Positions 11,544 to 35,725 of a DNA stretch of 35,725 bases are shown piece after piece. This DNA is from a virus: the IMG/VR virus record IMGVR_UViG_3300045988_127927, positions 1-35,725 of that record, one strand, 5' to 3'. Below the pieces are notes generated by a model. That model saw only the letters and a list, made by a program, of their open reading frames with translations, made no database searches and was not told the origin of the DNA. A program made the translations under genes and the position numbers. The first letter of the stretch is position 1. Each line of letters opens with the position of its first letter.

Positions 11544-12084
11544 TTTTCGTATCCCGACCCTGAACGCGGCGGGTGAGTTCACCGGCTCCGCTCTTGCGCA
11601 CATTCAGAAGGTGGCGAGCGCGGCGGGCGGCGGCGGGGGCACCGCTACCGTTCGAGATACCGGGTGGCGGCGTGTTGATTCGCCTAATCTCGCTTCTGGT
11701 TCCGTGTTTTTCCGCCGTGTCGATAACCTTGTTTCTGTTACGGTTCGCGGCGGTTCTTGGGATACGGCTACTATTAAGCCGTCGGCCTCGCGCGCACCTA
11801 ACGGTAGTCCGTTCGGTGATCTGGGTTATCGTACCCGCCTCGCGATTAACATTCTTCCGGGCTTCCGTGCGCTAACCCCGGTGATTGCGCCCGTGATGAC
11901 TGACGACGGCGAGTCGGTGGGGATGCTGATTATGTCGAATCCGTCGGACGGCAACCGCCTGTCTTTCCGTGGCTTCCGTAACGGCCAGAAACAGGATGTA
12001 GCTAACGTCTATTTGCGGTTCCCTATTCTCACGTGGATTACGTCTGAGGATTGGCCGGCCGAGCTACCGGGCGAACCGGCTTAG
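11536..12084 (+). CDS. putative receptor-binding / tail fibre tip protein (182 aa)
   Basis: ATG at 11536 within ATGTCTAA, overlapping the upstream stop. It is the last tail gene before the lysis cassette. It has a Gly run followed by beta-rich sequence. Function is inferred from position only. Confidence 0.45.
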   Translation: MSNFRIPTLNAAGEFTGSALAHIQKVASAAGGGGGTATVRDTGWRRVDSPNLASGSVFFRRVDNLVSVTVRGGSWDTATIKPSASRAPNGSPFGDLGYRTRLAINILPGFRALTPVIAPVMTDDGESVGMLIMSNPSDGNRLSFRGFRNGQKQDVANVYLRFPILTWITSEDWPAELPGEPA

Positions 12085-12143
12085 CCCCGTCTAGGGTGGG
12101 TGTATCATGAAAAAGAATATTCATTCCACAGAAAGAAACACCT

Positions 12144-12629
12144 ATGCCGCCTGATTTTTGGGCACAAATCAGTAGCAATTTTTGGATGGTTCTACAAGCT
12201 GGAACCGCTACCGCCGCCGCCTATGGTGCTAAATGGCTAAAAGAGCTACAAGCGACCAAGAAGAAGGAAGCAGCAGAGCGCCGGGCGCAAGATGCTGTTA
12301 TCCTTGCACGACTTGAAGCGCTGGCAAATCAGCAGAGCGCGGTTAAGGACGAGGTTAAGAATAGCCACGGTACTAATTTGCGTCATGATCTAGATATTGC
12401 TATCCAGAATTCGCAGGAGGCGCGCGATAATTCGACGCAGGCGCTAAAGATTGTCGAGCAAATCCGAGACTCCCTAGAAACCCTTACGGGCGACGTTAGG
12501 GAATCCAAGAAGGAGCATACGGATTTTCGCGAACGCCATAATCAGAGCACGGAAGAGATTCATGACCTTAATAAGCGAGTGAACGCTCTATTTTCTGCAC
12601 AGAACAAGAAGGAGAATAACCATGAGTAA
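12144..12629 (+). CDS. membrane-anchored coiled-coil protein (161 aa), lysis-cassette associated
   Basis: Has an N-terminal hydrophobic segment (FWMVLQAGTATAAAYGAKWL) followed by a long charged heptad-like region. Its stop overlaps the endolysin start. Confidence 0.55.
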   Translation: MPPDFWAQISSNFWMVLQAGTATAAAYGAKWLKELQATKKKEAAERRAQDAVILARLEALANQQSAVKDEVKNSHGTNLRHDLDIAIQNSQEARDNSTQALKIVEQIRDSLETLTGDVRESKKEHTDFRERHNQSTEEIHDLNKRVNALFSAQNKKENNHE

Positions 12630-13482: not shown

Positions 13483-13564
13483 ATCGGTGTTCCTTAAATT
13501 GTTCCAGTGATGGGATGTTGAGAGAATATCGGTGGAGTGGTCACACTGTCGGGTGTTGGCACAG

Positions 13565-13607
13565 AAGAAACCCCCTAGTTTGTGGTATAGCTAGGGGGTT
13601 TCTTTTT
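13565..13607. terminator. bidirectional intrinsic terminator between convergent late and leftward modules
   Basis: 14-bp stem (13565-13578 paired with 13591-13604; core AAACCCCCTAG / CTAGGGGGTTT), 12-nt loop, and a T-run on the + strand. Confidence 0.8.
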
Positions 13608-13615
13608 GCCCGGTG

Positions 13616-13870
13616 CTAGGTGAAGTTTTTCCGGTTAGCCTGTACTACGAATACGCGTGGCGTGAAGCCGTCGTATGTGGTTCGGTATCTGGGGTACCGG
13701 GTGCGACACAGCATCTCCACCATATCGCCGGTGAACTTAGTAGCAATGACACGGTACCGTTCTCCGGTCTCCGTTTCGTAGCTGGCTACCCATTCCGAGG
13801 CGGTGAAGCCAGGGTACCGCGCGGCGACCGCACCGGCGTACTCATAGCCGCGCTCTTCGAGGTCAAGCAT
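13616..13870 (-). CDS. hypothetical protein (84 aa)
   Basis: Last gene of the leftward operon. Its ATG overlaps the upstream stop (ATGCTTGA). Confidence 0.6.
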   Translation of the reverse strand: MLDLEERGYEYAGAVAARYPGFTASEWVASYETETGERYRVIATKFTGDMVEMLCRTRYPRYRTTYDGFTPRVFVVQANRKNFT

Positions 13871-14255
13871 TATACGCCCCCAGTCCTAGCGCCTTTTCGA
13901 GCGTGTCGAGGTCTTCGAGCAGGCCGGGCAGCTTGTAACCCTTATTGAGCTGATATCCCAAATCAAGCAATTTCACGATTACGGTTATTTGCAGGCCGTG
14001 CGGATTATGCTGTGTCTTTCGGATGAATCGCGCGGCGGCTTCGAGCGCGCCGGGCGTAGCGGCGGGCGCGGCCTCTAAGTGCAACTCTAGGCACCGGCGG
14101 GCTTTGCGAATGTCTTCCGCGCCGCCTTTCTTTTTGCATCGCCATACGTATTTTATGGCCGCGCCTAGGAAATAGGGCGCTTCCATGATGAGCGGTTCGA
14201 GGGCTAACCCCTGAATCTTGCCATAGTGCGTCGGGTTGATCGGGTCGTTAGTCAT
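13863..14255 (-). CDS. DUF3310-family protein
   Basis: INPTHYGK ... LGAAIKYVWRCKKKGGAEDIRKARRCLE matches the DUF3310 signature. The ATG at 14255 is preceded by GAAAGGGAA; the track start at 14279 is a TTG extension. Confidence 0.75.
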   Translation of the reverse strand: MTNDPINPTHYGKIQGLALEPLIMEAPYFLGAAIKYVWRCKKKGGAEDIRKARRCLELHLEAAPAATPGALEAAARFIRKTQHNPHGLQITVIVKLLDLGYQLNKGYKLPGLLEDLDTLEKALGLGAYNA

Positions 14256-14790
14256 TGCAGGTTTCCCTTTCGAGTTCAAGCAGGAAAGTGCGAGCGTTTA
14301 GCGCCTTGAGCTGGATATAGGGCGGCTGGGTGGTATCGGTGAGAATTGCGGTGAGCCGGTCAATAGTTGCCGTGTACGGGCTTTCAGTCTTGACCGGCGC
14401 AGGCTTTGCCTTAGCCGTCTTAGCGGGCTTTACCGGGGCGGGTGCCAGGTACGCGGCGGTGAGCATCTTTACGGTGCTATCTACCGCCTTACGCGCCTTG
14501 ATGCGACCCGGCGCACGGGATGCCTTGAGAAATTCCAGCGCCTCCGCATAGGTGAAATGCCAGGCCGCGCTAGTAATCTTGATGCCCGCGCTACCTACGG
14601 CGTTAGGCGGGTAGTTGAACTTTTCGCCGGTGCCCGGGTGGTTAGCGAGGTACGAGTTTAGGGCTGCACCGGGTGCCTTGATGCCCGCCGCTTGTAGCAG
14701 TGCAAACGCGCGAATCCAGATTACGCCGTCATCTTCGACGTAAAAGGTCACGGGCTTGGTGTTGATGGTTTCGCAGTGAAGACGGGGCAT
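14248..14790 (-). CDS. hypothetical protein (180 aa), possibly DNA-binding, with Ala/Pro/Lys-rich linker
   Basis: ORF in the leftward operon with a low-complexity PAPVKPAKTAKAKPAPVK linker. No motif recognised. Confidence 0.6.
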   Translation of the reverse strand: MPRLHCETINTKPVTFYVEDDGVIWIRAFALLQAAGIKAPGAALNSYLANHPGTGEKFNYPPNAVGSAGIKITSAAWHFTYAEALEFLKASRAPGRIKARKAVDSTVKMLTAAYLAPAPVKPAKTAKAKPAPVKTESPYTATIDRLTAILTDTTQPPYIQLKALNARTFLLELERETCND

Positions 14791-14792
14791 GA

Positions 14793-15221
14793 TTAGCGCT
14801 TCCTTTCATTGTAGATTTGGGTTAGGTGGATGTGTACGCCGGGCGCGTCGCCGTACTCTTTGACCGCTTCTAGCTTGTTGCATCGCGCGTCATCTTCGAT
14901 AATGCCGCCGCTGGTAAGCGAGTCAAAGACCGCGCGGGTGAGCTTGTCAATGTCCGGTTTTACCGCGTGTATAGGGCCTAGCGTGCCTTGGAATAGCGCG
15001 CCGCTCTTAGGCTCTGTGAACACGAACCGTAGCGAGGCTTGGAACGCTCCGACGATTAGCGGCGCTCCGACCGCCTGGCTGGTCTTGAGGTGGTGCTTTC
15101 GCATGGTTTCGCGCCATTCTTTTGTTTTGGGGTTTGCTTCGACGGCGCGCCCCCGGTAGACGGTCTTTGATCCTTGCGGCACGGGACCAGGTTTACGGGC
15201 TATGAATGTTTTGTAGTGCAT
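14793..15221 (-). CDS. rusA: RusA-like Holliday junction resolvase
   Basis: KPDIDKLTRAVFDSLTSGGIIEDDARC matches the RusA catalytic Asp-rich block. RBS GAAAGG lies upstream. Confidence 0.8.
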   Translation of the reverse strand: MHYKTFIARKPGPVPQGSKTVYRGRAVEANPKTKEWRETMRKHHLKTSQAVGAPLIVGAFQASLRFVFTEPKSGALFQGTLGPIHAVKPDIDKLTRAVFDSLTSGGIIEDDARCNKLEAVKEYGDAPGVHIHLTQIYNERKR

Positions 15222-15242
15222 GTTCTACCTTTCGACATTTAT

Positions 15243-15272
15243 ACTATAAACCTATCTATGGGGTGAACACAA
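15243..15272 (-). promoter_or_regulatory. promoter copy P1 (leftward): TTGTGT-18 bp-TATAGT
   Basis: The minus strand reads ccTTGTGTtcaccccatagatagGTTTATAGTATAAATGtcgaaaggtagaacATG. This is near-identical to the four rightward copies. Confidence 0.7.
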
Positions 15273-15395
15273 GGCTAGACACTGTGAGTATAGTCACTCT
15301 TGCATAATGAACCTATATGCCCCTATATATGGTAGAATTGAAGTACAAGCTAGCAGTGATGTAACATTTCTTGTTTCCTTAGTTTGTTTGGGTTC

Positions 15396-15438
15396 AAAAA
15401 AAATACCCCCTTGATGGTGATTCGAGGGGGTATTTTTG
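15396..15438. terminator. orphan bidirectional terminator hairpin inside the divergent control region
   Basis: A8-TACCCCC ... 15-nt loop ... GGGGGTA-T5. The minus strand gives the hairpin followed by T8. Confidence 0.6.
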
Positions 15439-15455
15439 TGCCCAAAAACAGGAAG

Positions 15456-15488
15456 CAACCCCTGCCAAAAAAGGCACCCCTACCAAAA
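15456..15488 (+). repeat. two direct repeats CA(A)CCCCTrCCAAAA plus a third CCAAAAA tract at 15442
   Basis: gcaacccctgccaaaaaagg and gcacccctaccaaaata, read directly. Confidence 0.6.
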
Positions 15489-15502
15489 TATACCTAGACA
15501 CT

Positions 15503-15560
15503 TTTTACTAGGGGGGGAGGGTTATTTTACTAGGGGGGGTAGGGTTATTTTACTAGGGTA
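15503..15560 (+). repeat. 2.6 tandem copies of the 22/23-bp iteron-like repeat TTTTACTAGGGGGGG(T)AGGGTTA
   Basis: Copies at 15503-15524, 15525-15547 and 15548-15560 (partial). Confidence 0.9.
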
Positions 15561-15610
15561 AATAGAAGTAATTAAATAGAAGTTAAATAAATAGAAGTAA
15601 TTAAATCGAA
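15560..15610 (+). repeat. four tandem copies of the AT-rich 14-15-bp repeat AAATAGAAGTAATT
   Basis: Reads aaatagaagtaatt / aaatagaagttaaat / aaatagaagtaatt / aaatcgaagac. Confidence 0.9.
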
Positions 15611-15648
15611 GACGCGCGCGGGGCGCGGCGGGAATGATTGCAAGCACC

Positions 15649-15660
15649 GGGGGGGGGGGG
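15649..15660 (+). repeat. G12 homopolymer tract
   Basis: Twelve consecutive G, 50 nt upstream of the replication-organiser start codon. Confidence 0.9.
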
Positions 15661-15710
15661 CTATCATGGAGCCAGACCCACGCAACAATAATTTTTGAAA
15701 GGATCTGAAA

Positions 15711-16619
15711 ATGTCCATCACTGCAATTCTGGCAGCTGGCTATGTGACTCACAGCCCCGCCGGTGAACAGCTGAAAGCTTCTAGCCTCTCGACGTTGAAG
15801 GCGCTTGCTTTCTGTACCGGCGAACGCTCTAACGTTTGCTACCCGTCTATGCGTACCTTGCAGGAGATGACCGGGCACACCGCTAAGACGATTCGCGCCG
15901 CCCTGGACACTCTCGAAGAAGTCGGTTTCATCACCCGTAACCACCGCGTAGGAACCTCTAATGCCTACACCTTGCAGATTGACACTATGCGTTCCACTCA
16001 CCGCCGCCGCCGCTGGACTGAAACCCGTGACTCTGGCAACCCCTACGCGGGCGACCCTAACGCCGTAACCGTAGTAGACGAAATCCCCATCGAGGAACAG
16101 CCGGTTAAGCGTAGCGACTTCACAGAAGCCCTGGTAGAGGAAACTACCGCGCCCGCGCCGGTACAGACCGAGCTAATCCCCGCCTCCCCTGTCAAGAAGA
16201 CCAAGAAGCGCAGCACTACCACCACCGCCGCGCTTGATGAAGATTTCGACGAATTCTACAAGCACGCGTACCCGCGCAAAATGGAGCCGTTGAAGGCGCG
16301 CCGTGCATTTGAGAAGGCTGTGAAGAACGGCGCAGACCCGCGCGAAATTATCGAAGGCGCGCGCCGGTTCGCCGCCGCTACCGCCGCTAAGGGTAAAACG
16401 TATATCCCATACCCGGCTTCGTGGCTAAACGCGGGCGGCTGGATGAATGAGGCGGGCGATATTGCCCCGGTAGAACCTACCCCGTGGCAGAAGAAGACCG
16501 CGCGCCTTGTGCAGTCTATGCAGGCCGCCGCCGTGGTGAATAACGCGCCCGCGCTAACCGGCGTAGCACCCGCTACCGCTCCCGCCGAACCCCTGGCTAT
16601 CGAGCCTGGCTACATCTAA
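15711..16619 (+). CDS. replication initiation / replisome-organiser-like protein with N-terminal winged HTH
   Basis: LKALAFCTGERSNVCYPSMRTLQEMTGHTAKTIRAALDTLEEVGFI is HTH_36-like. The C-terminal block FYKHAYPRK..KARRAFEKAV...YIPYPASWLNAGGW is typical of phage replication organiser proteins. The gene is adjacent to iteron-like repeats. Confidence 0.7.
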   Translation: MSITAILAAGYVTHSPAGEQLKASSLSTLKALAFCTGERSNVCYPSMRTLQEMTGHTAKTIRAALDTLEEVGFITRNHRVGTSNAYTLQIDTMRSTHRRRRWTETRDSGNPYAGDPNAVTVVDEIPIEEQPVKRSDFTEALVEETTAPAPVQTELIPASPVKKTKKRSTTTTAALDEDFDEFYKHAYPRKMEPLKARRAFEKAVKNGADPREIIEGARRFAAATAAKGKTYIPYPASWLNAGGWMNEAGDIAPVEPTPWQKKTARLVQSMQAAAVVNNAPALTGVAPATAPAEPLAIEPGYI

Positions 16620-16630
16620 GGAGCGGCGAC

Positions 16631-17086
16631 ATGAATAAGCAGGAATGCGCAACGTTCTACGCACAGGCGGCAAAGGTTGATAGCCGCCTCCCTGATCGTG
16701 AATTTGATGAGTTCGACGCGTGGGAAATGCTTCTAGCGGATATTCCCCCTAAGTTCGCGCCTATGATTTTCCGTGAGATTTACCGCCGCGTTCAGGTTCA
16801 GCAGCTACAGCCGGGGCATATTGTCGAGGCGTGGGAAACCGTTCGTAAGGCGGTGAACGCCGCTATTGCCCGGTGCCTGTCTTTCGAGAAGCGCACGCGC
16901 GAGCTGGACGTGTCAGACCGTGAAGATGCCACGAAATTTAACGAGATTGTGGAAGCGCATAACGCGGCTGTGGATTCGCTACCGGGTGAGGTAGCGGCGG
17001 CCAATGGGTTTACTCACAAGGAGCTGGTACCTGTACCGGGTGAACGTGTGCCCGCGCCCGCCCCGGCGTGGTTTAAGTCACTGTAA
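16631..17086 (+). CDS. hypothetical protein (151 aa)
   Basis: AAGGAG RBS and compact spacing. Confidence 0.65.
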   Translation: MNKQECATFYAQAAKVDSRLPDREFDEFDAWEMLLADIPPKFAPMIFREIYRRVQVQQLQPGHIVEAWETVRKAVNAAIARCLSFEKRTRELDVSDREDATKFNEIVEAHNAAVDSLPGEVAAANGFTHKELVPVPGERVPAPAPAWFKSL

Positions 17087-17103
17087 AAAAGTTAGATTCT
17101 GGC

Positions 17104-17161
17104 TTGCGTTGCGCCCCCTGAAAGGTTTATACTATAAATGTAAGGCAACGAAGACCTTACA
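17104..17161 (+). promoter_or_regulatory. promoter copy P2 (TTGCGT-18-TATACT) plus 5' leader hairpin
   Basis: -35 at 17104-17109, -10 at 17128-17133, hairpin TGTAAGG-9 nt-CCTTACA at 17139-17161, then AGAAACCCAAACCGAAAGGAA. Confidence 0.7.
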
Positions 17162-17188
17162 GAAACCCAAACCGAAAGGAAGCCAGAA

Positions 17189-17599
17189 ATGTTCGGCATC
17201 ACCCGCAATCCCGCAGACGAACGCTACATCACCGCAGACCTTGGTGGCGACACCACCGCCGTAAAGCTTCTGGTACGACCCGACTACATCGCAGGCACTC
17301 ATTACCTGATGATTGACCACAAGAGCGCCATGAAGCTGGCACACCCCAAGAACCCGGGCAAGTGGATCCAGGAACTCCGACAGGGACTACGGCAGCACAA
17401 CGGCGAGGCTCAGCTCTGGAGCACCACCCCCACCGCCGGAAAGGGCGCGCTAGTCACCGCCTGGAAGACCGAGGACGCAATTAACTATCTCGACCTTGAT
17501 AACGTGATCCGCGCTATCGAAGACCGCGCCCCCGCCTCGCACAAGCCTAACGCCGCTATCCTCCGTGACCTCAAGCGTGAGATTGTAGGCGGCATCTAA
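17189..17599 (+). CDS. hypothetical protein (136 aa), first gene of cassette P2
   Basis: The ATG lies 8 nt after GAAAGGAAG. Confidence 0.7.
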   Translation: MFGITRNPADERYITADLGGDTTAVKLLVRPDYIAGTHYLMIDHKSAMKLAHPKNPGKWIQELRQGLRQHNGEAQLWSTTPTAGKGALVTAWKTEDAINYLDLDNVIRAIEDRAPASHKPNAAILRDLKREIVGGI

Positions 17600-17624
17600 C
17601 CCCCGCCGGTTACCGGCAACCAAC

Positions 17625-17648
17625 GCCCCGCCCCTCACCGGGCGGGGC
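17625..17648 (+). terminator. GC hairpin GCCCCGCCC-6 nt-GGGCGGGGC (attenuator/terminator-like)
   Basis: 9-bp all-GC-rich stem. Same arms as the hairpins at 21467 and 23321. No U-tract. Confidence 0.5.
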
Positions 17649-17676
17649 ACACAAACCCCAAACCCGAAAGAAGGAC

Positions 17677-17889
17677 ATGATGAAGACACTCATCACCCGC
17701 TACCCGCGAACCATCGGGTACACCGTAATAGCAGCACTACAGCTAACCACATTTTTCGTGGCCATGCTGAATAACCGGCTAGACCCGGCGCACATCTCAA
17801 ACGTGCTTCTCTCCGTAATCGTCGTGTGCTGTGGCTTTGAAATTGACATGCTAAAGCTTGAGAAGAAGGATACCCGCCGTGAAAATTAA
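17677..17889 (+). CDS. small membrane protein (70 aa, two TM)
   Basis: Hydrophobic segments YTVIAALQLTTFFVAML and VLLSVIVVCCGF. RBS GAAAGAAGGA. Confidence 0.65.
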   Translation: MMKTLITRYPRTIGYTVIAALQLTTFFVAMLNNRLDPAHISNVLLSVIVVCCGFEIDMLKLEKKDTRREN

Positions 17890-18793
17890 CACTCTCATGC
17901 GCCGCGCCGTACCCGCGCCCGCTCCCGGCTCCGACGAATGGAAGCGCAAGATTACCGCCTCCAAGGTGGCATCTGTCGTTTGTAAAAGCCCGTGTACTTC
18001 CAAGTTTGCGCTACACGCTGAGATGACCGGCCGCTACGAGGCAGACCCGATTAACCAGGCGGTATTGGAGGCCGGTAATATTCTGGAACCGGCTGTAGCG
18101 GGTTGGTTTCAGCTGCACAACCCCGACGTAGAAGTGCGTGAGTGCAAGAAGCGCAACACTCCCGTATGGTGGGTATCGCGCGATAGTGAAGACTTTGCCG
18201 CTACCCCCGACCGTATCCTAGTAGACCGTGAGACCGGCGAGGTCACCGCGCTACTGGAAATCAAGACCGCGCGCGTCGCCTCCGAATGGGGCGAAGAAGG
18301 TACCGACGAAATCCCCGAGCACTACCGCCTACAAGCGCTTTGGCAGATGAAATGTACCGGCGTAAAGACCGTTATTTTTGCTGTGCTACATGCCGGGCTG
18401 AGGTTCGCTACATACCGCGTCGAGTGGGACGCGGCGGCGGTTGATGAGCTTACGGCGGCGGCGACCGATTTTATGGACGCGGTACGCACCGGGCAAACCC
18501 CTGACTATCGCGAGGAACCCGGCGCGTTCTCGACCTACGAGGTGCTCCGCTATTATTTCCCTGAGTGCAACGGTGAAGCCGTGATGTTGAGTGATGACCT
18601 GGTCTACCGTACCCGCCGCGCTAAGCGCCTAAAGCGATTGGCCGCGCGTGCTGAGGATATCGTCAAGAATGAGCTAACCGCCGTTATGGGCAACGCGAGC
18701 GCGGGCGTTGATTACGCGAACCGTACCGTGGCGCGGCGCTCTCAGAGGAAGACCACTAAAGGTTATTCCCGCCCGTGGGTGACTATCGTCTAG
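17879..18793 (+). CDS. YqaJ/lambda-Exo-like recombination exonuclease (PD-(D/E)XK)
   Basis: GSDEWKRKITASKVASV, AGNILEP and ATPDRILVD...ALLEIKTAR fit the YqaJ viral recombinase family. The start is uncertain: GTG 17879 after GAAGAAGGA, or ATG 17897. Confidence 0.8.
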   Translation: MKINTLMRRAVPAPAPGSDEWKRKITASKVASVVCKSPCTSKFALHAEMTGRYEADPINQAVLEAGNILEPAVAGWFQLHNPDVEVRECKKRNTPVWWVSRDSEDFAATPDRILVDRETGEVTALLEIKTARVASEWGEEGTDEIPEHYRLQALWQMKCTGVKTVIFAVLHAGLRFATYRVEWDAAAVDELTAAATDFMDAVRTGQTPDYREEPGAFSTYEVLRYYFPECNGEAVMLSDDLVYRTRRAKRLKRLAARAEDIVKNELTAVMGNASAGVDYANRTVARRSQRKTTKGYSRPWVTIV

Positions 18794-18842
18794 GCGGCTG
18801 TAGCGGCGCTGGAAAATTTTCTAAATTTTTTCCGGTTTGGGC

Positions 18843-18912
18843 TTGTTTCCCCTCATAAATAGATTTATACTATAAATGTAAGGAAAACAAAGGAACCACC
18901 GGAAACCTTACA
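18843..18912 (+). promoter_or_regulatory. promoter copy P3 (TTGTTT-17-TATACT) plus 5' leader hairpin
   Basis: -35 at 18843-18848, -10 at 18866-18871, hairpin TGTAAGG-22 nt-CCTTACA at 18877-18912. The upstream AT-rich block gctggaaaattttctaaatttt is identical to that of P5. Confidence 0.7.
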
Positions 18913-18937
18913 ACCCAAACCGAAAGGAAACGAAATC

Positions 18938-19309
18938 ATGGAACTCACCGCTAAGGACTTCACCGCACAGCTGGCCGCTAAGGGTTACACCCCCGGTATC
19001 GACTTCGACGTTGATAACGGCGACGAACCGCACACCGTGAAGCTCACTGGCGCGATCACCTTTAACGGCGCAGATGGTTTTATGGACTTCCGCAACGCAG
19101 AGGAATACTACGGCATCACCTGTGCAGAGTATGAAGACCTCGCGTTCTTCTCCAAGACCTACCCGCTTACCGAGGCACAGATTACCGACATCGAAGAAGG
19201 CGGCGAACCCGGCAACGCAGAACAGGAAGAAAAGTTCTTCGACGCATGGCGTGCAGCTCTCGACGGTATCGGTATCGACCTGAACGACATTCCGGTTTCC
19301 AGCCGCTAA
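18938..19309 (+). CDS. highly acidic protein (123 aa), first gene of cassette P3
   Basis: By my count about 26 D/E against about 8 K/R. Strong RBS GAAAGGAAA. Lies between the exonuclease and RecT genes. Confidence 0.75.
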   Translation: MELTAKDFTAQLAAKGYTPGIDFDVDNGDEPHTVKLTGAITFNGADGFMDFRNAEEYYGITCAEYEDLAFFSKTYPLTEAQITDIEEGGEPGNAEQEEKFFDAWRAALDGIGIDLNDIPVSSR

Positions 19310-19336
19310 GCAACGCACATAAGCACCGATAGACCC

Positions 19337-19377
19337 GCCGGGCGGCGGACTCTTCCGAATACCCGCCGCCGCCCGGC
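19337..19377 (+). terminator. GC hairpin (12-bp stem GCCGGGCGGCGG / CCGCCGCCCGGC, 17-nt loop) followed by ATTT
   Basis: Read directly. Located between the acidic gene and recT. Confidence 0.5.
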
Positions 19378-19406
19378 ATTTACCACCACCGAAAGGAACC
19401 TACACC

Positions 19407-20225
19407 GTGGGCACTGAAATTCAGCAATTCACAGGCACCGCTCTACAGGTAAAGAATGATTTTGTAGATCCCATCAAGAACGCGATTACCGGCGCGTTAC
19501 CGCTATTCATGCGTGAAGACTCCGAGGCCTGGATTAGGGGCGCAATTCTGGAGGTTAGCAAGACTCCGCAGCTTGTCCAGTACGCCAAAAACAATTTTCC
19601 AGCATTTGCAGGCACGCTAACCCGTGTCGCCGCGCTGGGTTTACCGCTCAACCGTGACATGGTGTACGTGCTCCCCTTTGCATCGAAACAGGGGATGCAG
19701 GCCAACGTTATCATGGGTTGGCGCGGTGAGCTTGAACTCATTTATCGCGCGGGCAACGTCGAGACCGTCCACCATGAAGAAATCTTTGAGAATGACGGCT
19801 ACGAATGGAAGGACGGCGCCCCCCGCCTTATCGCTCCCGCCCCGGAAGGGCAGCGCGGCAAAATCAAGCACGCCGTAGCATGGGCTGTCTTGAAGAGCGG
19901 CAAAATCAGCCAATACGCGGTTGTGAGTGCCGACCGCATCGCCGCCGCCAAGAAAGCATCACGCGGCTCTAACTCCCCGTCTAGCCCCTGGGTACAGCAC
20001 GAGGTAGCAATGTGGCGCAAAACGGCAATTCATGAGCTGGCGAACTTCGTAGATTCAAGCGTAGAAGAGTGCCGACCGGAACGCCTGGAAGCCATGAAGA
20101 CCCGCGCGGCTCTCGCTTTGGACGTGGAGCGCGAAAAGACCGCGCGCATGGCAGAGGAAAACAGGGCTATGGAACTCAAGATTAAGCTAATGGAACTGGA
20201 ACAGACTAAGAAGGAAGGGGCATAA
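19407..20225 (+). CDS. recT: RecT-family single-strand annealing protein
   Basis: LPLNRDMVYVLPF, ANVIMGWRGELELIYRAGNVETVHHEEIFENDGYEW and the SPW..H...M..KTA block are RecT-like. GTG start after GAAAGGAA. Confidence 0.85.
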   Translation: MGTEIQQFTGTALQVKNDFVDPIKNAITGALPLFMREDSEAWIRGAILEVSKTPQLVQYAKNNFPAFAGTLTRVAALGLPLNRDMVYVLPFASKQGMQANVIMGWRGELELIYRAGNVETVHHEEIFENDGYEWKDGAPRLIAPAPEGQRGKIKHAVAWAVLKSGKISQYAVVSADRIAAAKKASRGSNSPSSPWVQHEVAMWRKTAIHELANFVDSSVEECRPERLEAMKTRAALALDVEREKTARMAEENRAMELKIKLMELEQTKKEGA

Positions 20226-20226
20226 G

Positions 20227-20547
20227 ATGACCCTAAATGCAACCCGTACACACTACATTAACGAGTATGATTACTCACATATCCGCTGGCGCGGCTTCGT
20301 AAAGCGCCTCGCCCTCCGCGCAGCATCTCTAGCCGATTCGCGCGGCGTGCTGAACATTGGGCGTGACAAGTTTTTTAAGGATACTCTAGGCGACGAATAC
20401 AACCCCCGCTACATCTCGCACATCATCACTGACTGTAACCGCATCGAGCGCGTGAGTTTTGCGACCATTGGGCACAGTGCGAGCGCCCGCCTGGTCATTG
20501 TCTTTGATGACGAAAAGATTAGTAAGAGCATGGAAAAGAAGGGCTAG
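20227..20547 (+). CDS. hypothetical protein (106 aa)
   Basis: The ATG lies 1 nt after the recT stop, with AAGGAAGGGG upstream. Confidence 0.65.
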   Translation: MTLNATRTHYINEYDYSHIRWRGFVKRLALRAASLADSRGVLNIGRDKFFKDTLGDEYNPRYISHIITDCNRIERVSFATIGHSASARLVIVFDDEKISKSMEKKG

Positions 20548-20550
20548 AAC

Positions 20551-21099
20551 ATGTCTTCTACCGTAACCGTACTAGGAAATATTGGGGCGGACGCAGAGCG
20601 ACGCGAGACGCAGAACGGCACCCCGTACCTGACTTTCACCGTTGCGGATTCACGCTCTAAATGGGACGCGGCCGCCGGTAAGTATGTCCCGCTAAATACG
20701 ACGTGGCGACGCGTAACCACCTTTAAGGGGTTGGACTATTTGCCCGATCAGCTTGTCAGGGGTGCGACCGTCTACGTATCCGGTAGCGAGGAATTGCGCA
20801 CCTGGGACAAAGAGGACGGGACGAAGGGTTACAGCCTGGATGTTACGGCGCATGTGGTGAAGGTGGTATCAAAGTCCACCGATAGCGGGGCACCCGCGCA
20901 GGTTCAGACTAGCCCGGTTGCCGCGTACCCGGCGAACACCGCCGCCCCGGTTCAGCAGCAGGGATACGCACAGCAGGCGCAGCCTATGCAGGGCGGTTAT
21001 GCACAGCCCGCCGCCGCCGCGCCGCCCGCCGGTTACCAAGCCGCCGCTAACGCATCGAGCGGATGGGGTGGATACGATAACGGGGCGACCCCGTTCTAG
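20551..21099 (+). CDS. ssb: single-stranded DNA-binding protein
   Basis: OB-fold N-terminus VTVLGNIGADAERRETQNGTPYLTFTVA, a Gly/Gln/Ala/Pro-rich linker and a C-terminal ...ATPF tail. Confidence 0.9.
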   Translation: MSSTVTVLGNIGADAERRETQNGTPYLTFTVADSRSKWDAAAGKYVPLNTTWRRVTTFKGLDYLPDQLVRGATVYVSGSEELRTWDKEDGTKGYSLDVTAHVVKVVSKSTDSGAPAQVQTSPVAAYPANTAAPVQQQGYAQQAQPMQGGYAQPAAAAPPAGYQAAANASSGWGGYDNGATPF

Positions 21100-21111
21100 C
21101 CCTAGCCCGCT

Positions 21112-21139
21112 AACCCCCGGTGAGTAATCGCCGGGGGTT
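21112..21139 (+). terminator. hairpin AACCCCCGG-10 nt-CCGGGGGTT after ssb
   Basis: 9-bp stem read directly, followed by TGG (weak U-tract). Confidence 0.5.
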
Positions 21140-21189
21140 TGGCGTACCCGGCGCGGGAAAAATTTTTTTGAAAAATCTTTGATTCTGGC

Positions 21190-21245
21190 TTGCTTTCCAC
21201 CCCACACAAGGTTTATACTATAAATGTAAGGCAAAGAGCCTTACA
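21190..21245 (+). promoter_or_regulatory. promoter copy P4 (TTGCTT-18-TATACT) plus 5' leader hairpin
   Basis: -35 at 21190-21195, -10 at 21214-21219, hairpin TGTAAGGC-5 nt-GCCTTACA at 21225-21245. An AT-rich block lies upstream at 21155-21180. Confidence 0.7.
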
Positions 21246-21271
21246 GAAACCCAAGCCGAAAGGAAACCCCA

Positions 21272-21451
21272 ATGTTGGAGTACTACGAAATTCAGGAATA
21301 CGTTACCGAGGTAGCAGCAGGTAACTACCCGTTCCGAGTAATCGACGCGGTAACCGCCGATATTTACGAACGCGGCGTAGCCGTCGAGATGGAAGACCTC
21401 AAGGCATACCCGCGAACCCGTGAACTTCTCAAGATTCACAACGCGGCCTAA
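21272..21451 (+). CDS. 59-aa acidic protein, first gene of cassette P4 (absent from the ORF track)
   Basis: ATG after CCGAAAGGAAACCCCA. Translation: MLEYYEIQEYVTEVAAGNYPFRVIDAVTADIYERGVAVEMEDLKAYPRTRELLKIHNAA. A gapless alignment gives 20/59 identities to the 23125 ORF. Confidence 0.75.
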   Translation: MLEYYEIQEYVTEVAAGNYPFRVIDAVTADIYERGVAVEMEDLKAYPRTRELLKIHNAA

Positions 21452-21466
21452 CAATCAACCAACTAA

Positions 21467-21489
21467 GCCCCGCCCTAACCGGGCGGGGC
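21467..21489 (+). terminator. GC hairpin GCCCCGCCC-5 nt-GGGCGGGGC
   Basis: Same arms as the hairpins at 17625 and 23321. Confidence 0.5.
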
Positions 21490-21503
21490 ACCCCTAGCAA
21501 ATC

Positions 21504-22079
21504 ATGGCAAATCAGTTTTACAAATCAGAAACATGCTCACAGTGCGGTAACCCCTGGGAAAAACCCGATCTGGTCAATTGCCGCCGGTGCAAACAGTGGG
21601 AACTCAAACGCGCCCGCACCCGCCGCAAAAAGGCAGAGAAAGCGGGTGAGCTAGAGCGCAAGCGCAAAAACAAGGAGTGGGCCGCAACCCATTGCTACAT
21701 TTGCGGTTCGCTTATGGATAATCCAGACCCCAAATGCTACCGGTGCCGCGAACGCATCAAGCGCCGCGAAAAATGGCTAGAACGCCGCGCCGAACGCATG
21801 AAACCGAACGACCTAAACAACCTAGAAGGCGTAAGGAAGTTCCTACAGGCGCGCCGCCGCCGCCTCAACCAAGACCCCCACACCCCCCCATCGAAGGAAT
21901 CGACACATGAAACACCCCATCACCGGGCGACCCCTAACCATCACCGCCGCCGCGCTCGCAACAGTACCGACCGGCTTTTTTCTCGCCGCGCTCATCACCG
22001 GCGGCGGCGTGAACATCGGCAGCTCTATTCTCACCCTCGCTACGTGGTGGGTGGGTGTGCTGATCGTGGCATTGTTTGA
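21504..22079 (+). CDS. zinc-ribbon protein (two CxxC...CxxC pairs), basic; 3' end uncertain
   Basis: Contains CSQCGNPW...CRRCKQW and CYICGSL...CYRCRERI. The last ~57 codons overlap the 21907 gene and read as low-complexity His/Arg sequence. A C7 tract lies at 21883-21889. Confidence 0.55.
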   Translation: MANQFYKSETCSQCGNPWEKPDLVNCRRCKQWELKRARTRRKKAEKAGELERKRKNKEWAATHCYICGSLMDNPDPKCYRCRERIKRREKWLERRAERMKPNDLNNLEGVRKFLQARRRRLNQDPHTPPSKESTHETPHHRATPNHHRRRARNSTDRLFSRRAHHRRRREHRQLYSHPRYVVGGCADRGIV

Positions 22080-22122
22080 GGCCAACCCGCGCGACGCGCG
22101 AACCAACCGAGAGGAACACTAA
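21907..22122 (+). CDS. small membrane protein (71 aa, two TM)
   Basis: ATG after CGAAGGAA. Hydrophobic segments LTITAAALATVPTGFFLAALI and ILTLATWWVGVLIVALF. Confidence 0.7.
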   Translation: MKHPITGRPLTITAAALATVPTGFFLAALITGGGVNIGSSILTLATWWVGVLIVALFEANPRDARTNREEH

Positions 22123-22124
22123 TC

Positions 22125-22763
22125 ATGCGTATTATCGAATTGGAAAAGTACCAAGCACCCGGCAAGCTCTGGCACATTGTCACTACCGAGGCGGTAGACA
22201 AGCTGCGCACCACGGCTATTATTTTCGCTGACACCCCGGCGAAAACCTACATTTCGCTTGTCGCCGCCGCTGAAATCGCAGGCGTAAGTGAAACCGGCGT
22301 ACGCGACTATCTCAAGAAGCACGGCGCGCGGCCTAAGCTATTCACCGTCCCGGCTAACGTCAATCGCACCGGACAGGCGCGAAAAATGGCGTTTATCGAC
22401 CCGCTTACCATGTTCCATATTCTCTTAGAGGTAGACCCGCGCGAACAGAGCGTTAGGGGTTGGTTCCATGACCTAACGCACTTCGACGGCGACGAAATCC
22501 CCAAATTCTGGGGCATGACGAATGTTCGAGAGGCGGCGATTATCGAAGATAAGGCGCGCGAAATCGAACTACTGGAAATTCCAGACTTTACCCCGCCCGC
22601 CCGCGTCGAGTTTGACGCTACCGGCGGAATCGAGCAGCTGAACCGCATCATCTCAGACCTACACGCCCCGTACCATGTACGAGTGAAGGCGCTACAGATT
22701 CAGCATGAGGTGAATCAGCTCGCTAATACCGTAGACAAGCTGAATGAAGGAAAGGACGCATAA
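22125..22763 (+). CDS. HTH-containing DNA-binding protein (212 aa)
   Basis: ISLVAAAEIAGVSETGVRDYLKKHG looks like a helix-turn-helix. The C-terminus is coiled coil. Confidence 0.6.
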   Translation: MRIIELEKYQAPGKLWHIVTTEAVDKLRTTAIIFADTPAKTYISLVAAAEIAGVSETGVRDYLKKHGARPKLFTVPANVNRTGQARKMAFIDPLTMFHILLEVDPREQSVRGWFHDLTHFDGDEIPKFWGMTNVREAAIIEDKAREIELLEIPDFTPPARVEFDATGGIEQLNRIISDLHAPYHVRVKALQIQHEVNQLANTVDKLNEGKDA

Positions 22764-22764
22764 A

Positions 22765-23007
22765 ATGCGCATGACTCGACAGATTATCAAGCTCTCAAGC
22801 TACCGCGTGAAGGGTGTAACTTTCGCCGTGGAGTTTGACTATGACAAGCCGGGTGACCGCCGCACTAAGATTGGGCAGGCGTTGAAGTCAATCATTGGTA
22901 TTCATGAGCTGAATTATCTGAGCAATCAGGCAATTAAGATTATGGGTAGCGGTGAATCCGCGCGTGAGGTGTGGAGCTATGAGGTGGTGGAGACTGAGGA
23001 TATTTAG
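22765..23007 (+). CDS. hypothetical protein (80 aa)
   Basis: The ATG at 22765 lies 8 nt after GAAGGAAAGGA. The track start at 22744 sits inside the upstream gene. Confidence 0.6.
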   Translation: MRMTRQIIKLSSYRVKGVTFAVEFDYDKPGDRRTKIGQALKSIIGIHELNYLSNQAIKIMGSGESAREVWSYEVVETEDI

Positions 23008-23040
23008 CTGGAAAATTTTCTAAATTTTCTTGGTTTTGGC

Positions 23041-23098
23041 TTGCTTTGCACACCCCAATAGGTTTATACTATAAATGTAAGGCAAAGGAGGTCTTACA
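23041..23098 (+). promoter_or_regulatory. promoter copy P5 (TTGCTT-18-TATACT) plus 5' leader hairpin
   Basis: -35 at 23041-23046, -10 at 23065-23070, hairpin TGTAAG(G)-loop-(T)CTTACA at 23076-23098. The palindrome GAAAATTTTC lies upstream at 23011-23020. Confidence 0.7.
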
Positions 23099-23124
23099 GA
23101 AACCCAAACCGAAAGGAGCTAGCA

Positions 23125-23304
23125 ATGCTGGCACGTCACGAAATTCTCGAATCCATCACCACCGCAGCATACGGCGAAATCTCGACCGCCGTTCTGGAAG
23201 CCGCGGCAACCGAGATTTGGGAAAATAACAGCTTCGAGACTATGGCAGATTTTGAAGCCTACGATAAGACCTGGGAAATCGTCGCAAAGCACGACGCTAA
23301 GTAA
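23125..23304 (+). CDS. 59-aa acidic protein, first gene of cassette P5 (absent from the ORF track); paralogue of 21272-21451
   Basis: ATG after CCGAAAGGAGCTAGCA. Translation: MLARHEILESITTAAYGEISTAVLEAAATEIWENNSFETMADFEAYDKTWEIVAKHDAK. Confidence 0.75.
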   Translation: MLARHEILESITTAAYGEISTAVLEAAATEIWENNSFETMADFEAYDKTWEIVAKHDAK

Positions 23305-23320
23305 CCCCTAACCACATAAC

Positions 23321-23347
23321 GCCCCGCCCGCTAACCCCGGGCGGGGC
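23321..23347 (+). terminator. GC hairpin GCCCCGCCCG-7 nt-CGGGCGGGGC
   Basis: Followed by CACCAAACCCCAAACCCGAAAGGAA, as after the 17625 hairpin. Confidence 0.5.
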
Positions 23348-24439: not shown

Positions 24440-24854
24440 CGTACCCATCATGAGCACCTATAACCAATACACCGATAAAAACGACTTTCCGAACCACGGA
24501 ATAATTTACAGGGCACTACCCGACCAAATCCTACGAGCCGCTTTCATGCTCACATGGAAAGCCGGTGTGAGCTGGAAAGAAGACAGAAACAGGACGATTC
24601 GAGACGCACTAGCGGCTATCGACGCAGCTAAAGCGGTGTACCCGTCCATGCGCCTTAAGAAACCGCTAGCAAGTCAAGATGCTCAGCTGGATTATTTGCT
24701 AATGATCGTAGAAGGTATCAATAACGCGGGCGACTTCAAGAGTAAGCACCAATACGGCGCATTGAAAGCTATTCTGTCCGCACAGAAGACCAACGATATT
24801 GCCCACCTGGGCGTTGCAGGCATGAACCTGTACGGCTGGGCAGGTGAGCAATGA
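24408..24854 (+). CDS. hypothetical protein (148 aa)
   Basis: AAGGAG RBS 7 nt upstream. Confidence 0.65.
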   Translation: MKRYEREVFANVPIMSTYNQYTDKNDFPNHGIIYRALPDQILRAAFMLTWKAGVSWKEDRNRTIRDALAAIDAAKAVYPSMRLKKPLASQDAQLDYLLMIVEGINNAGDFKSKHQYGALKAILSAQKTNDIAHLGVAGMNLYGWAGEQ

Positions 24855-25051
24855 CTAGCGCCGTATGCGCTCGCTGTGGATGCCCGGCCAATGAGTACAC
24901 CTCATCATGCAGGGCGTGCTATATGCGCCGCCGCTACCGGGCATCTGTACCACAGAAACCCGCCGTTACCCGGCAACCTGTCTACACCGGAAAGGTTGCC
25001 GGGCGGGTACCCGCCCTAAACTCACTGATACCACCACGAAAGGAACACTAA
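24851..25051 (+). CDS. small zinc-finger protein (66 aa)
   Basis: Contains CARCGCP...SSCRACY. ATGA overlap with the upstream gene. Confidence 0.55.
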   Translation: MTSAVCARCGCPANEYTSSCRACYMRRRYRASVPQKPAVTRQPVYTGKVAGRVPALNSLIPPRKEH

Positions 25052-27368: not shown

Positions 27369-27384
27369 AATAAAACCCGAACAC

Positions 27385-27509
27385 TAGAACACCCCAATAG
27401 AACACACATACGGGGGGCGGTAAAAAAATAGAACACACCTTCGACACCCAAACCTGGGCGCAGTGTCAATCTCCCCCCGCTGGAATTTACCGGGCATCGC
27501 GCGCGCGAT
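27385..27509 (+). promoter_or_regulatory. putative cos / terminase-recognition region
   Basis: Three TAGAACAC repeats (27385, 27398, 27429), G6 and C6 runs, and the 14-bp palindrome ATCGCGCGCGCGAT (27496-27509), all between the HNH and TerS genes. Confidence 0.45.
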
Positions 27510-27530: not shown

Positions 27531-27905
27531 ATGAACATTTGGCGTATTGGCATGATGAAGAGCGTGCAAGAATCTATCACCGCCGCCGTGAACGACGGTT
27601 TGATTAAGAATGCAGATAGCGCTAAATGTGCGCTCGCGTTGAAGTATGCCGCCGCGTTGGATGAAGCCTACGAGCTGTACAACGAAGACGGTGATTTTGA
27701 TTTGCTGTTGAAGGCTCTGAATATTGTCGGTCCGAACCTCAACAAGGCGCTGGACTCTCTGGGTTGCGCCCCGTATTCGCGTAAGGATATGCAGGCGCAG
27801 GCGACCGAGACCGACCGACTAGATGAGCTTATCGAGCAGCGCGGCAAGGAAGACCCCGCGCTAGTCGCCCGGATCATGGCAGAGATTGAAGGTGAAGAGG
27901 ATTAG
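27531..27905 (+). CDS. terminase small subunit
   Basis: Lies upstream of TerL. 124 aa with an acidic C-terminus. ALDSLGCAPYSRKDMQ resembles the LGLTPaaR motif of P27-type TerS. Confidence 0.6.
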   Translation: MNIWRIGMMKSVQESITAAVNDGLIKNADSAKCALALKYAAALDEAYELYNEDGDFDLLLKALNIVGPNLNKALDSLGCAPYSRKDMQAQATETDRLDELIEQRGKEDPALVARIMAEIEGEED

Positions 27906-35584: not shown

Positions 35585-35725
35585 TAGCCTGTCTCAATTC
35601 ATTTAAAGAGCATGAAGACGAGGTACGCGCCCGGCTTCTTGAACTGGGTTTGAATTGGGACGGGAAAAGAACCGGTAAAAACAATTGGGCTAATATTCAC
35701 GCGGCCATTAAAACCGCGCCGCCCG
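35581..35725 (+). CDS. start of the -1 frame extension of the chaperone (gpT part), continuing to 300 after the junction
   Basis: GTA ATA GCC TGT ... AAA AGA ACC GGT contains no stops and is in phase with 1-300. Confidence 0.8.
35671..35725. repeat. 55-bp exact terminal duplication, copy 2
   Basis: Identical to 1-55. Confidence 0.95.

Follow-up and report, generated by a model that had tools for sequence, protein, structure and literature searches.

The viral genome analyzed here, IMG/VR record IMGVR_UViG_3300045988_127927 (positions 1 to 35,725, the whole of which we call the window), carries five copies of a probable regulatory cassette, P1 to P5, confined to its replication and recombination half. 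All copies are intergenic and co-oriented with the genes downstream, P1 preceding a unit comprising RusA and others, P2 a unit with a YqaJ exonuclease, P3 a unit with RecT and SSB, and P4 and P5 units made up of open reading frames (ORFs) of unknown function. The cassette measures about 110 bp from an A/T-rich block to the start codon and has a fixed order of parts, namely the A/T-rich block, GGCTTGC (-35), an 18-nt spacer, TATAsT or TAnnnT (-10), ATAAAT, GTAAGG-loop-CCTTAC, a ribosome-binding site, and ATG. The part following the hairpin reads A(G)AAACCCAAACCGAAAGGA and then ATG (ACCCAAACCGAAAGGA in the summary consensus). We propose that these copies are probably promoter and leader cassettes read by the host, reused along the genome and serving also as crossover points.

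On the minus strand, P1 (15222..15276) has its -35 TTGTGT at 15272-15267, an 18-nt spacer, its -10 TATAGT at 15248-15243, and a predicted +1 G at 15236. It is identical in plan to the other copies up to GT and then diverges into a short leader of 15 nt, GTCGAAAGGTAGAAC, which has no hairpin and leads to the RusA ATG at 15221. The remaining four copies lie on the plus strand. P2 (17075..17188) consists of an A/T-rich upstream block, -35 TTGCGT at 17104-17109, an 18-nt spacer, -10 TATACT at 17128-17133, predicted +1 at 17140, and a CA-rich stretch with a Shine-Dalgarno sequence at 17164-17180, followed by the ATG at 17189. P3 (18808..18937; -35 TTGTTT at 18843-18848, -10 TATACT at 18866-18871, predicted +1 at 18878, ATG at 18938) is the sole window copy with a 17-nt spacer. 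In P4 (21156..21271) an A/T block precedes -35 TTGCTT at 21190-21195, an 18-nt spacer, -10 TATACT at 21214-21219, and a predicted +1 at 21226, with the ATG at 21272, and P5 (23007..23124) likewise combines -35 TTGCTT (23041-23046), an 18-nt spacer, and -10 TATACT (23065-23070), with a predicted +1 at 23077 and the ATG at 23125. P3 and P5 have a 22-nt A/T-rich block in common, GCTGGAAAATTTTCTAAATTTT.

A preliminary description of the window had placed the five pairs of hexamers exactly where we find them, had pointed out the identical upstream block of P3 and P5, and had noticed no copy in the structural half; all three observations are borne out. Allowing up to 3 mismatches, TTTATACTATAAATG matched at P1-P5 only, each time on both strands because the core is palindromic, against a mean of 0.41 and a maximum of 2 matches in shuffled sequence, and this search of the whole window returned no copy in the structural half. 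The same description gave the repeat a length of ~45 bp. The repeat is real but larger than that, since likeness among the window copies continues for ~50 nt downstream through the hairpin and the conserved ribosome-binding region (repeat families D3, D4, and D8; alignment).

Relatives were collected by exact-pattern scans and by a RecT-based search of viral and metagenome collections. The cassette was recovered in ~16 near-complete contigs of 33-37 kb and in many fragments, the RecT proteins of cassette-bearing relatives being 92-97% identical, and the resulting conservation set comprises 101 distinct cassette sequences from 60 loci. The TTG of the -35 element, preceded by GGC, is invariant in all 101 copies (97/97 among those with an 18-nt spacer, in 85% of which the next base is C). 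In the -10 hexamer the first T and the A are each 99% conserved and the last T 100%, the intervening positions being T/C, A/G, and C/G/A, which yields the variants TATACT, TATAGT, TACACT, TATGCT, TACGCT, TACAAT, and TATAAT. The spacer is 18 nt long in 97 of 108 raw matches and in 43 of the 46 copies from the window and ten loci. Its first 13 nt carry less than 1 bit at most positions and vary more among relatives than any other part of the cassette, so the similarity through the spacer reported in the preliminary description holds inside this genome and breaks down outside it. Outside the hexamers, A and T tracts are kept at -55 to -42, the G seven bases after the -10 hexamer is invariant and is the predicted transcription start, and the hexamer is flanked by AGGTT on its 5' side and (A/G)TAAATGT on its 3' side, each 98-100% invariant.

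A strict TTG, a spacer fixed in length and free in sequence, and TAnnnT together therefore carry the signature of a housekeeping-sigma promoter. The pattern across the 101 copies supports the promoter reading, and it is very probable that P1-P5 are promoters using the hexamer pairs originally chosen for them. Two other assignments were considered and rejected. TATAAA, the second half of the palindrome around the -10, becomes TGTAAA in 12 of the 101 copies, losing an essential A, and no conserved -35 stands at the correct distance from it. The resemblance of TTGCTT to a T4 MotA box appears to be a coincidence, given the incorrect spacing and the lack of a MotA/AsiA context. TTG-N17/18-TAyrnT had no matches in ~24 kb of Rothia chromosome adjoining prophages, a sample too small to be informative.

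Downstream of the predicted +1 lies a conserved stem-loop, followed by A/C-rich sequence with no U-tract. The leaders of P2 to P5, four of four, are predicted to fold from nucleotide 1 with energies of -7.7 to -12 kcal/mol and to keep the ribosome site free of pairing. The P2 hairpin GUAAGGC...CCUUAC (17140..17160, plus strand; -8.3 kcal/mol, z -3.0) begins at the predicted first transcribed base, and its P4 counterpart GUAAGGC-aaaga-GCCUUAC (21226..21244, plus strand) reaches -12 kcal/mol with z -4.7. Folding places the P5 hairpin, GUAAGGC...GUCUUAC with one G-U pair, at 23077..23097 and that of P3 at 18878..18911 (both plus strand), the latter with an outer stem GUAAGG/CCUUAC and an inner GG/CC stem (loop family 'C'). 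Two loop variants from relatives fold likewise (-8.7 and -12.2 kcal/mol), and folding from nucleotide 1 with a free ribosome site is likewise predicted for nearly all of the ~64 non-P1 leader variants in the relatives. The loops fall into four families, a short loop, GAGG-n4-CCUC, GG(G)-n5-(C)CC, and GAC-n5-GUC. Changes of the inner stem from GG/CC to GGG/CCC occur together, and the alignment of the outer stem has one-sided changes only, mostly G-U-compatible. A search of 13-28 kb against Rfam returned no matching family, only a sub-threshold COG2908 match on the opposite strand. The predicted hairpin is well supported by its conservation and position, and not proven by covariation.

The ribosome-site motif ACCGAAAGGA occurs with 0-1 mismatch at 17170, 18918, 19387, 21254, 22105, 23107, and 23360, all on the plus strand of the early region, and at each of these seven sites the nearest ORF start lies 8 or 9 bp past the end of the motif. 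At up to 2 mismatches, 14 matches were found against 9.2 expected, which is not above chance. The motif stands just 5' of ORF starts at nine plus-strand sites of the early region, the seven above plus 17662 and 26120, and is thus found not only behind cassettes. Behind the opening gene of the P2 unit (17625-17648) and that of the P5 unit (23321-23347) stand near-identical GC-rich hairpins (GCCCCGCCC...GGGCGGGGC), again lacking a U-tract, after each of which come AAACCCCAAACCCGAAAGGA and the next start codon (repeat D17). Possible roles for these hairpins are attenuation, processing, or stability.

Comparison of the window with its relatives also reveals that homology tends to stop or restart at the cassettes. 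Of 222 break ends, which are non-independent events, the P2-P5 cassettes hold 47 while covering 4.7% of the region (about 4.5-fold enriched), with homology stopping or restarting at 17181-17184, 18794-18861, 21274, and 23082-23117. The genes behind a given cassette differ in L021, L023, L025, L027, and L029, and the loop families are shuffled among the P2-P5 positions between genomes. The relative L028 (IMGVR_UViG_3300045988_119263) is missing 17189-18793, that is, the entire P2 unit including the YqaJ exonuclease, while retaining RecT, and in its place has a single chimeric cassette (1596-1696 of that contig) with the upstream part of P2 and the downstream part of P3. The L028 contig, at 33.6 kb, is short in keeping with the loss of this unit. 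Duplication has left traces as well, in that the first genes of the P4 unit (21272..21451, plus strand) and the P5 unit (23125..23304, plus strand) each encode 59 amino acids and are paralogues with 34% identity (E value 8e-11; repeat D7). Divergence is far greater in these coding sequences than in the cassettes, which are about 64-87% identical at the DNA level.

The preliminary description had further suggested that the five promoters split the non-structural half into separately fired units. Such separation is not shown by the sequence; the only terminator-like structure directly upstream of any cassette is a GC-rich hairpin of 9 bp followed by TTTGG at 21114..21137 (plus strand), after the SSB stop codon (21099) and ahead of P4. 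No terminator was found before P2, P3, or P5, where the cassettes directly follow the stop codon of the previous gene, and nested, additive transcripts are at least as likely as insulated units. A different terminator-like structure lies near P1. Within 15300-15437 there is another promoter-like site, rightward and of the form TTGCAT-N18-TATATA, overlapping TGgTAGAAT, and ~90 nt downstream of it (15396-15437) an arrangement of A-run, hairpin, and T-run that resembles a bidirectional terminator. This pair could make a small RNA divergent from P1.

A second, unrelated cassette bears on how the first should be read. The temperate relative L072 resembles the window phage in its tail and lysis module and additionally encodes an integrase, an ImmA/helix-turn-helix (HTH) pair, and a Cro-like gene. 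The window's cassette motif was not found in L072, which has instead a 190-nt repeat in three copies (11959-12148, 13507-13696, and 14551-14740, minus strand) each ahead of a leftward gene; the three genes resemble one another at their N-termini and are located between the lysis genes and the integrase. The repeat is laid out as TTGGCA, 18 nt, TATACT, 6 nt, G, a hairpin GUAGG...CCUAC, ACCGAAAGGAAAC, and ATG, and the early rightward promoter region of the same genome contains TTGACG-18-TATAGT. Two cassettes unrelated in sequence thus follow the same plan, and the features common to them are therefore canonical promoter elements and a 5'-terminal hairpin. The window's 13616-15221 and 11074-17688 of L072 occupy equivalent places; the integrase, ImmA/HTH, and Cro-like genes are found in the latter, with no integrase or repressor in the former. 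It may be that the cassette-bearing phages are a lytic branch that arose from temperate Rothia phages.

The wider gene content is that of a 36-kb siphovirus. Bases 1-55 of the window are identical to 35671-35725 (repeat family D9), and because both ends share these 55 bases we take the assembly to be circular, with a true genome of 35,670 bp; an identical contig, ZHAN15 scaffold_246, is present in a human metagenome. Structural genes occupy 0.3-13.5 kb (tape measure, tail, and host-recognition genes, with an Amidase_2 endolysin and a holin) and 27.5 kb to the window end (small and large terminase, portal, and capsid). Between them, Pfam and PHROGs searches identified a leftward block at 13.6-15.2 kb, with RusA (14793-15221, minus strand, ATG at 15221) and a DUF3310 protein, and from 15.7 kb a rightward block on the plus strand with a replication initiator, the YqaJ exonuclease, RecT, SSB, and many family-less ORFs. 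The initiator (15711-16619, plus strand; phrog_270, E value 4e-27) is the sole clear HTH protein. No integrase, repressor, sigma factor, or RNA polymerase was detected among the window ORFs, and no tRNA genes were found. Just upstream of the initiator gene, within 15503-15611 and 15649-15660, are two iteron arrays, a 23-nt unit in 2.5 copies and the 14-nt unit TAAATAGAAGTAAT in 3.7 copies, and then a run of 12 G, and this region is likely the replication origin. The initiator unit is the sole rightward early unit with no cassette at its head. Elsewhere, (A/C)TAGAACAC is repeated three times inside 55 bp at 27384-27436, ~100 bp 5' of the small terminase gene (27531-27905), and may be a packaging recognition site, and the tape-measure gene (324-4814) contains at least 5 tandem-like 135-nt (45-codon) repeats at 2421-3235.

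The host is probably Rothia, an oral actinobacterium, judging from the endolysin, which is 57-63% identical to proteins named as Rothia; the R. mucilaginosa relative sits in a prophage adjoining chromosomal genes. The large terminase is ~39% identical to those of Arthrobacter and Microbacterium phages. Neither the 9-kb region nor a single cassette had a nucleotide match in 50,697 deposited phage genomes, and a literature search found no description of a Rothia phage. An exact 20-mer scan of 185,579 bacterial species genomes found nothing in Rothia and single chance matches in AT-rich genomes only.

Taking these observations together, we put the probability at about 65% that each ~110-bp copy is an expression unit complete in itself, a host-read promoter joined to a 5' hairpin leader, which is reused along the genome and doubles as a crossover point. 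At the DNA level it would act as a strong promoter of the housekeeping type (sigma-70, or actinobacterial SigA), with an UP-like A/T block and an A/T-rich discriminator, and the host RNA polymerase, probably the Rothia enzyme, would transcribe it. The start would be the G opening GUAAGG, so that four of the five mRNAs would begin exactly with the stem-loop, while the CA-rich ACCCAAACC, being single-stranded, and the Shine-Dalgarno sequence GAAAGGA would remain free for ribosomes. Stem-loops at the very 5' end of an mRNA can protect it, and by this analogy the most likely job of the hairpin would be to shield the 5' end from 5'-end-dependent decay, giving stable and well-translated messages for five early/middle gene blocks. 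Since about 100 bp of shared sequence is present several times in each genome and in every relative, the cassettes could at the same time act as homologous crossover points, allowing exchange, loss, or gain of the genes downstream.

Several points weigh against this reading. The AGGTT and TAAATGT flanks appear more constrained than contacts of RNA polymerase obviously explain, and they were not found in the L072 cassette. The -35 agrees with TTGACA at 3 of 6 positions only, which is why a generic promoter scan did not list the five sites; the match counts of that generic promoter/terminator scan equal chance. Promoter activity and the +1 positions are predictions, and the assignment of the host draws solely on the endolysin relatives in Rothia prophages. 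In the hairpin, the outer stem has no double compensatory change within the cassette family, and among 6 leaders folded the z-scores are unremarkable for P3 and P5 and modest for two more. The break ends, besides being non-independent, also cluster at the non-cassette sites 22.1, 22.6, 24.8, and 25.2 kb.

The strongly constrained flanks could mean that a phage protein, a repressor or activator, binds the core AGGTTTA-N5-TAAATGT with its outer TTTA/TAAA dyad, P1-P5 then forming one phage-controlled regulon. The core is 98-100% invariant from -17 to -13 and from -5 to +2 while the adjacent spacer is free, and the flanks are absent from the analogous L072 cassette, which speaks against a general host requirement for them. 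Some early ORFs also look by eye as if they bind nucleic acids, two with Cys4 zinc ribbons (21504-22079 and 24851-25051) and one with an HTH-like stretch (22125-22763). The two zinc-ribbon ORFs, with paired CxxC motifs, very basic tails, and no family match other than a weak one to DZR_2, are candidate regulators. The dyad itself tells against a binding site of this kind. The 13-bp TTTATAsTATAAA (6+1+6), which the preliminary description had suggested could act as an operator, is perfect in 61 of 101 copies, and it breaks on one side at a time, as C2/A6 in 20 copies and as T2/G6 in 12. None of the 101 copies has a compensating change restoring it, so that the inner dyad is broken on one side, uncompensated, in 40/101. 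The outer TTTA/TAAA, kept in nearly all copies, is the sole invariant part of the dyad, and half-sites of 4 bp set 5 bp apart are short for a dimeric operator. The hexamer, moreover, varies in exact agreement with TAnnnT. The GAAAATTTTC palindrome in the A/T block fares similarly, changing among relatives to GAAAAATTTTC and GAAAATTTTTC, as expected of A- and T-tracts and not of a specific operator. Searches of the window with Pfam, PHROGs, and PDB sequences detected no repressor, Cro-type, or antirepressor family, many early ORFs having no match at all, and the one clear HTH protein is the replication initiator; L072 has its ImmA/HTH pair and Cro-like genes yet lacks this motif. The palindrome is thus a weak candidate for an operator, and control by a phage protein of this sort seems to us unlikely, if still deserving of attention.

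The possibly phage-controlled transcription program of the preliminary description could also depend on a sigma factor or RNA polymerase specified by the phage, in the manner of T7-class or SPO1 middle promoters. About 20 bp of core, beyond the needs of a plain promoter, are strictly invariant and reused within one gene class only, many early ORFs have no detectable family, and a sigma factor is encoded by the Microbacterium cluster EI phages, whose genomes have five repeated intergenic motifs (PMC7302621). The element is nevertheless a canonical TTG/18 bp/TAnnnT that varies only where a housekeeping sigma is tolerant, and the same geometry recurs in the unrelated L072 cassette and in the L072 early promoter region. 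The three sets of searches found no Sigma70_r2/r4 or RNA polymerase domain in any ORF searched, many of these ORFs being family-less, and with nearly all early genes lying behind these promoters there is little left from which such a factor could be expressed first. We consider this improbable, and phage control in general is weakened by the lack of any detected sigma factor, polymerase, or repressor. More improbable again is that the hairpin and UUUAUAGUAU, read on the opposite strand, terminate antisense (leftward) transcription and that the conservation of the -10 reflects this. A pattern scan does mark the P2 (17161-17139) and P4 (21245-21225) hairpins as terminator-like on the minus strand, but the stems are weak (3-4 G-C pairs) with a poor U-tract tail, the DNA to the right of P2-P5 contains neither leftward genes nor leftward promoters, the hairpin is missing from P1 although that copy shares the core, and the 23 terminator-like matches in the region, against 21.5 expected, amount to chance. 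That the copies are neutral leftovers of recent duplications, with no regulatory function, is scarcely credible. At least one cassette-plus-gene duplication did happen, as the paralogues opening the P4 and P5 units attest, but the cassettes have stayed far more alike than those paralogues, the 101 variants set invariant columns against a free spacer and loop, and placement and orientation are strict in every relative.

The closest described analogue of the cassette appears to be the promoter-early stem-loop (PeSL) of T4-type myoviruses, a unit of roughly 100 bp that joins a stem-loop, an AT-rich region, a sigma-70 promoter, and a Shine-Dalgarno sequence and mediates modular shuffling (Arbiol et al. 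2010, PMC2839356; Comeau et al. 2014, PMC4122927). Both are conserved composite elements of ~100 bp present in many copies among early or ORFan genes, both have an AT-rich upstream region, a promoter of the housekeeping type, and a Shine-Dalgarno sequence with ATG at the 3' end, and in both a stem-loop belongs to the unit. Copies of both lie at junctions of insertion, deletion, or replacement, where recombination between copies deletes the genes in between, here the P2 unit in L028. They differ in the position of the stem-loop, which in the PeSL is upstream of the promoter, where it was shown to terminate incoming transcription, and in our cassette is downstream, at the predicted mRNA 5' end; an upstream hairpin accompanies only one of the five cassettes (P4). 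Promoter and terminator function and mini-circles have been demonstrated for PeSLs, whereas the promoter function of the cassette is a prediction, and T4-like myoviruses of proteobacterial hosts contrast with a 36-kb siphovirus of a probably actinobacterial one. A bolder and decidedly tentative proposal, to which we give little credence at present, is that an unrecognized early ORFan protein (a zinc-ribbon protein or the HTH-like one of the P4 unit) targets the core AGGTTTA-yrsTr-TAAATGT and times or shuts off all five units, the cassette then being the first PeSL-like mobile regulatory module documented outside T4-type phages, with its stem-loop as a 5' mRNA cap instead of a terminator.

Repeated motifs have also been reported from actinobacteriophages. 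Cluster O mycobacteriophages have sets of SigA-like promoters, and recombination between the repeats explains deletions (PMC4351075). Phages of Cluster K and Microbacterium Cluster EF have start-associated sequences (SAS), unusually conserved ~13-bp motifs located where ribosomes bind in front of some of the genes, and those of Clusters EC and EI have 30-bp repeats (PMC7302621). Like our cassettes, these motifs occur in 5-12 copies in short intergenic gaps among non-structural genes, and some coincide with the ribosome-binding site, as does ACCGAAAGGA here. In contrast, they are short (13-30 bp), being either plain promoter predictions with no shared flanks or repeats of unknown function, and none has been described as a unit of promoter, 5'-terminal hairpin, and ribosome site; the cassette itself had no match in the 50,697 phage records.

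Individual parts of the design have counterparts in other systems. The leaders of E. coli ompA and B. subtilis aprE have a hairpin at or near the 5' end together with an accessible ribosome-binding site, which guards against 5'-end-dependent RNases; these are single host genes for which the effect on half-life was measured. The cassette hairpin, by comparison, is a reused phage module, and a similar effect is suggested by its position and predicted fold. Streptomyces phage phiC31 has a family of near-identical early promoters across its early region with conserved inverted-repeat operators; its promoters are unlike housekeeping promoters and are repressor-controlled through the inverted repeats, whereas the cassette promoter is canonical and its dyad has not been kept, and the searches detected no repressor gene. 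We regard the cassette as a tidy variant of a known phage design and not as a new principle of gene regulation, the twist relative to known cassettes being the hairpin at the predicted 5' end of the message. The cassettes supply testable candidates for strong promoters and leaders in an abundant oral actinobacterium that lacks genetic tools, and they would extend the known idea of regulatory cassettes that drive early genes and serve as crossovers to a small siphovirus of a probable Gram-positive host.

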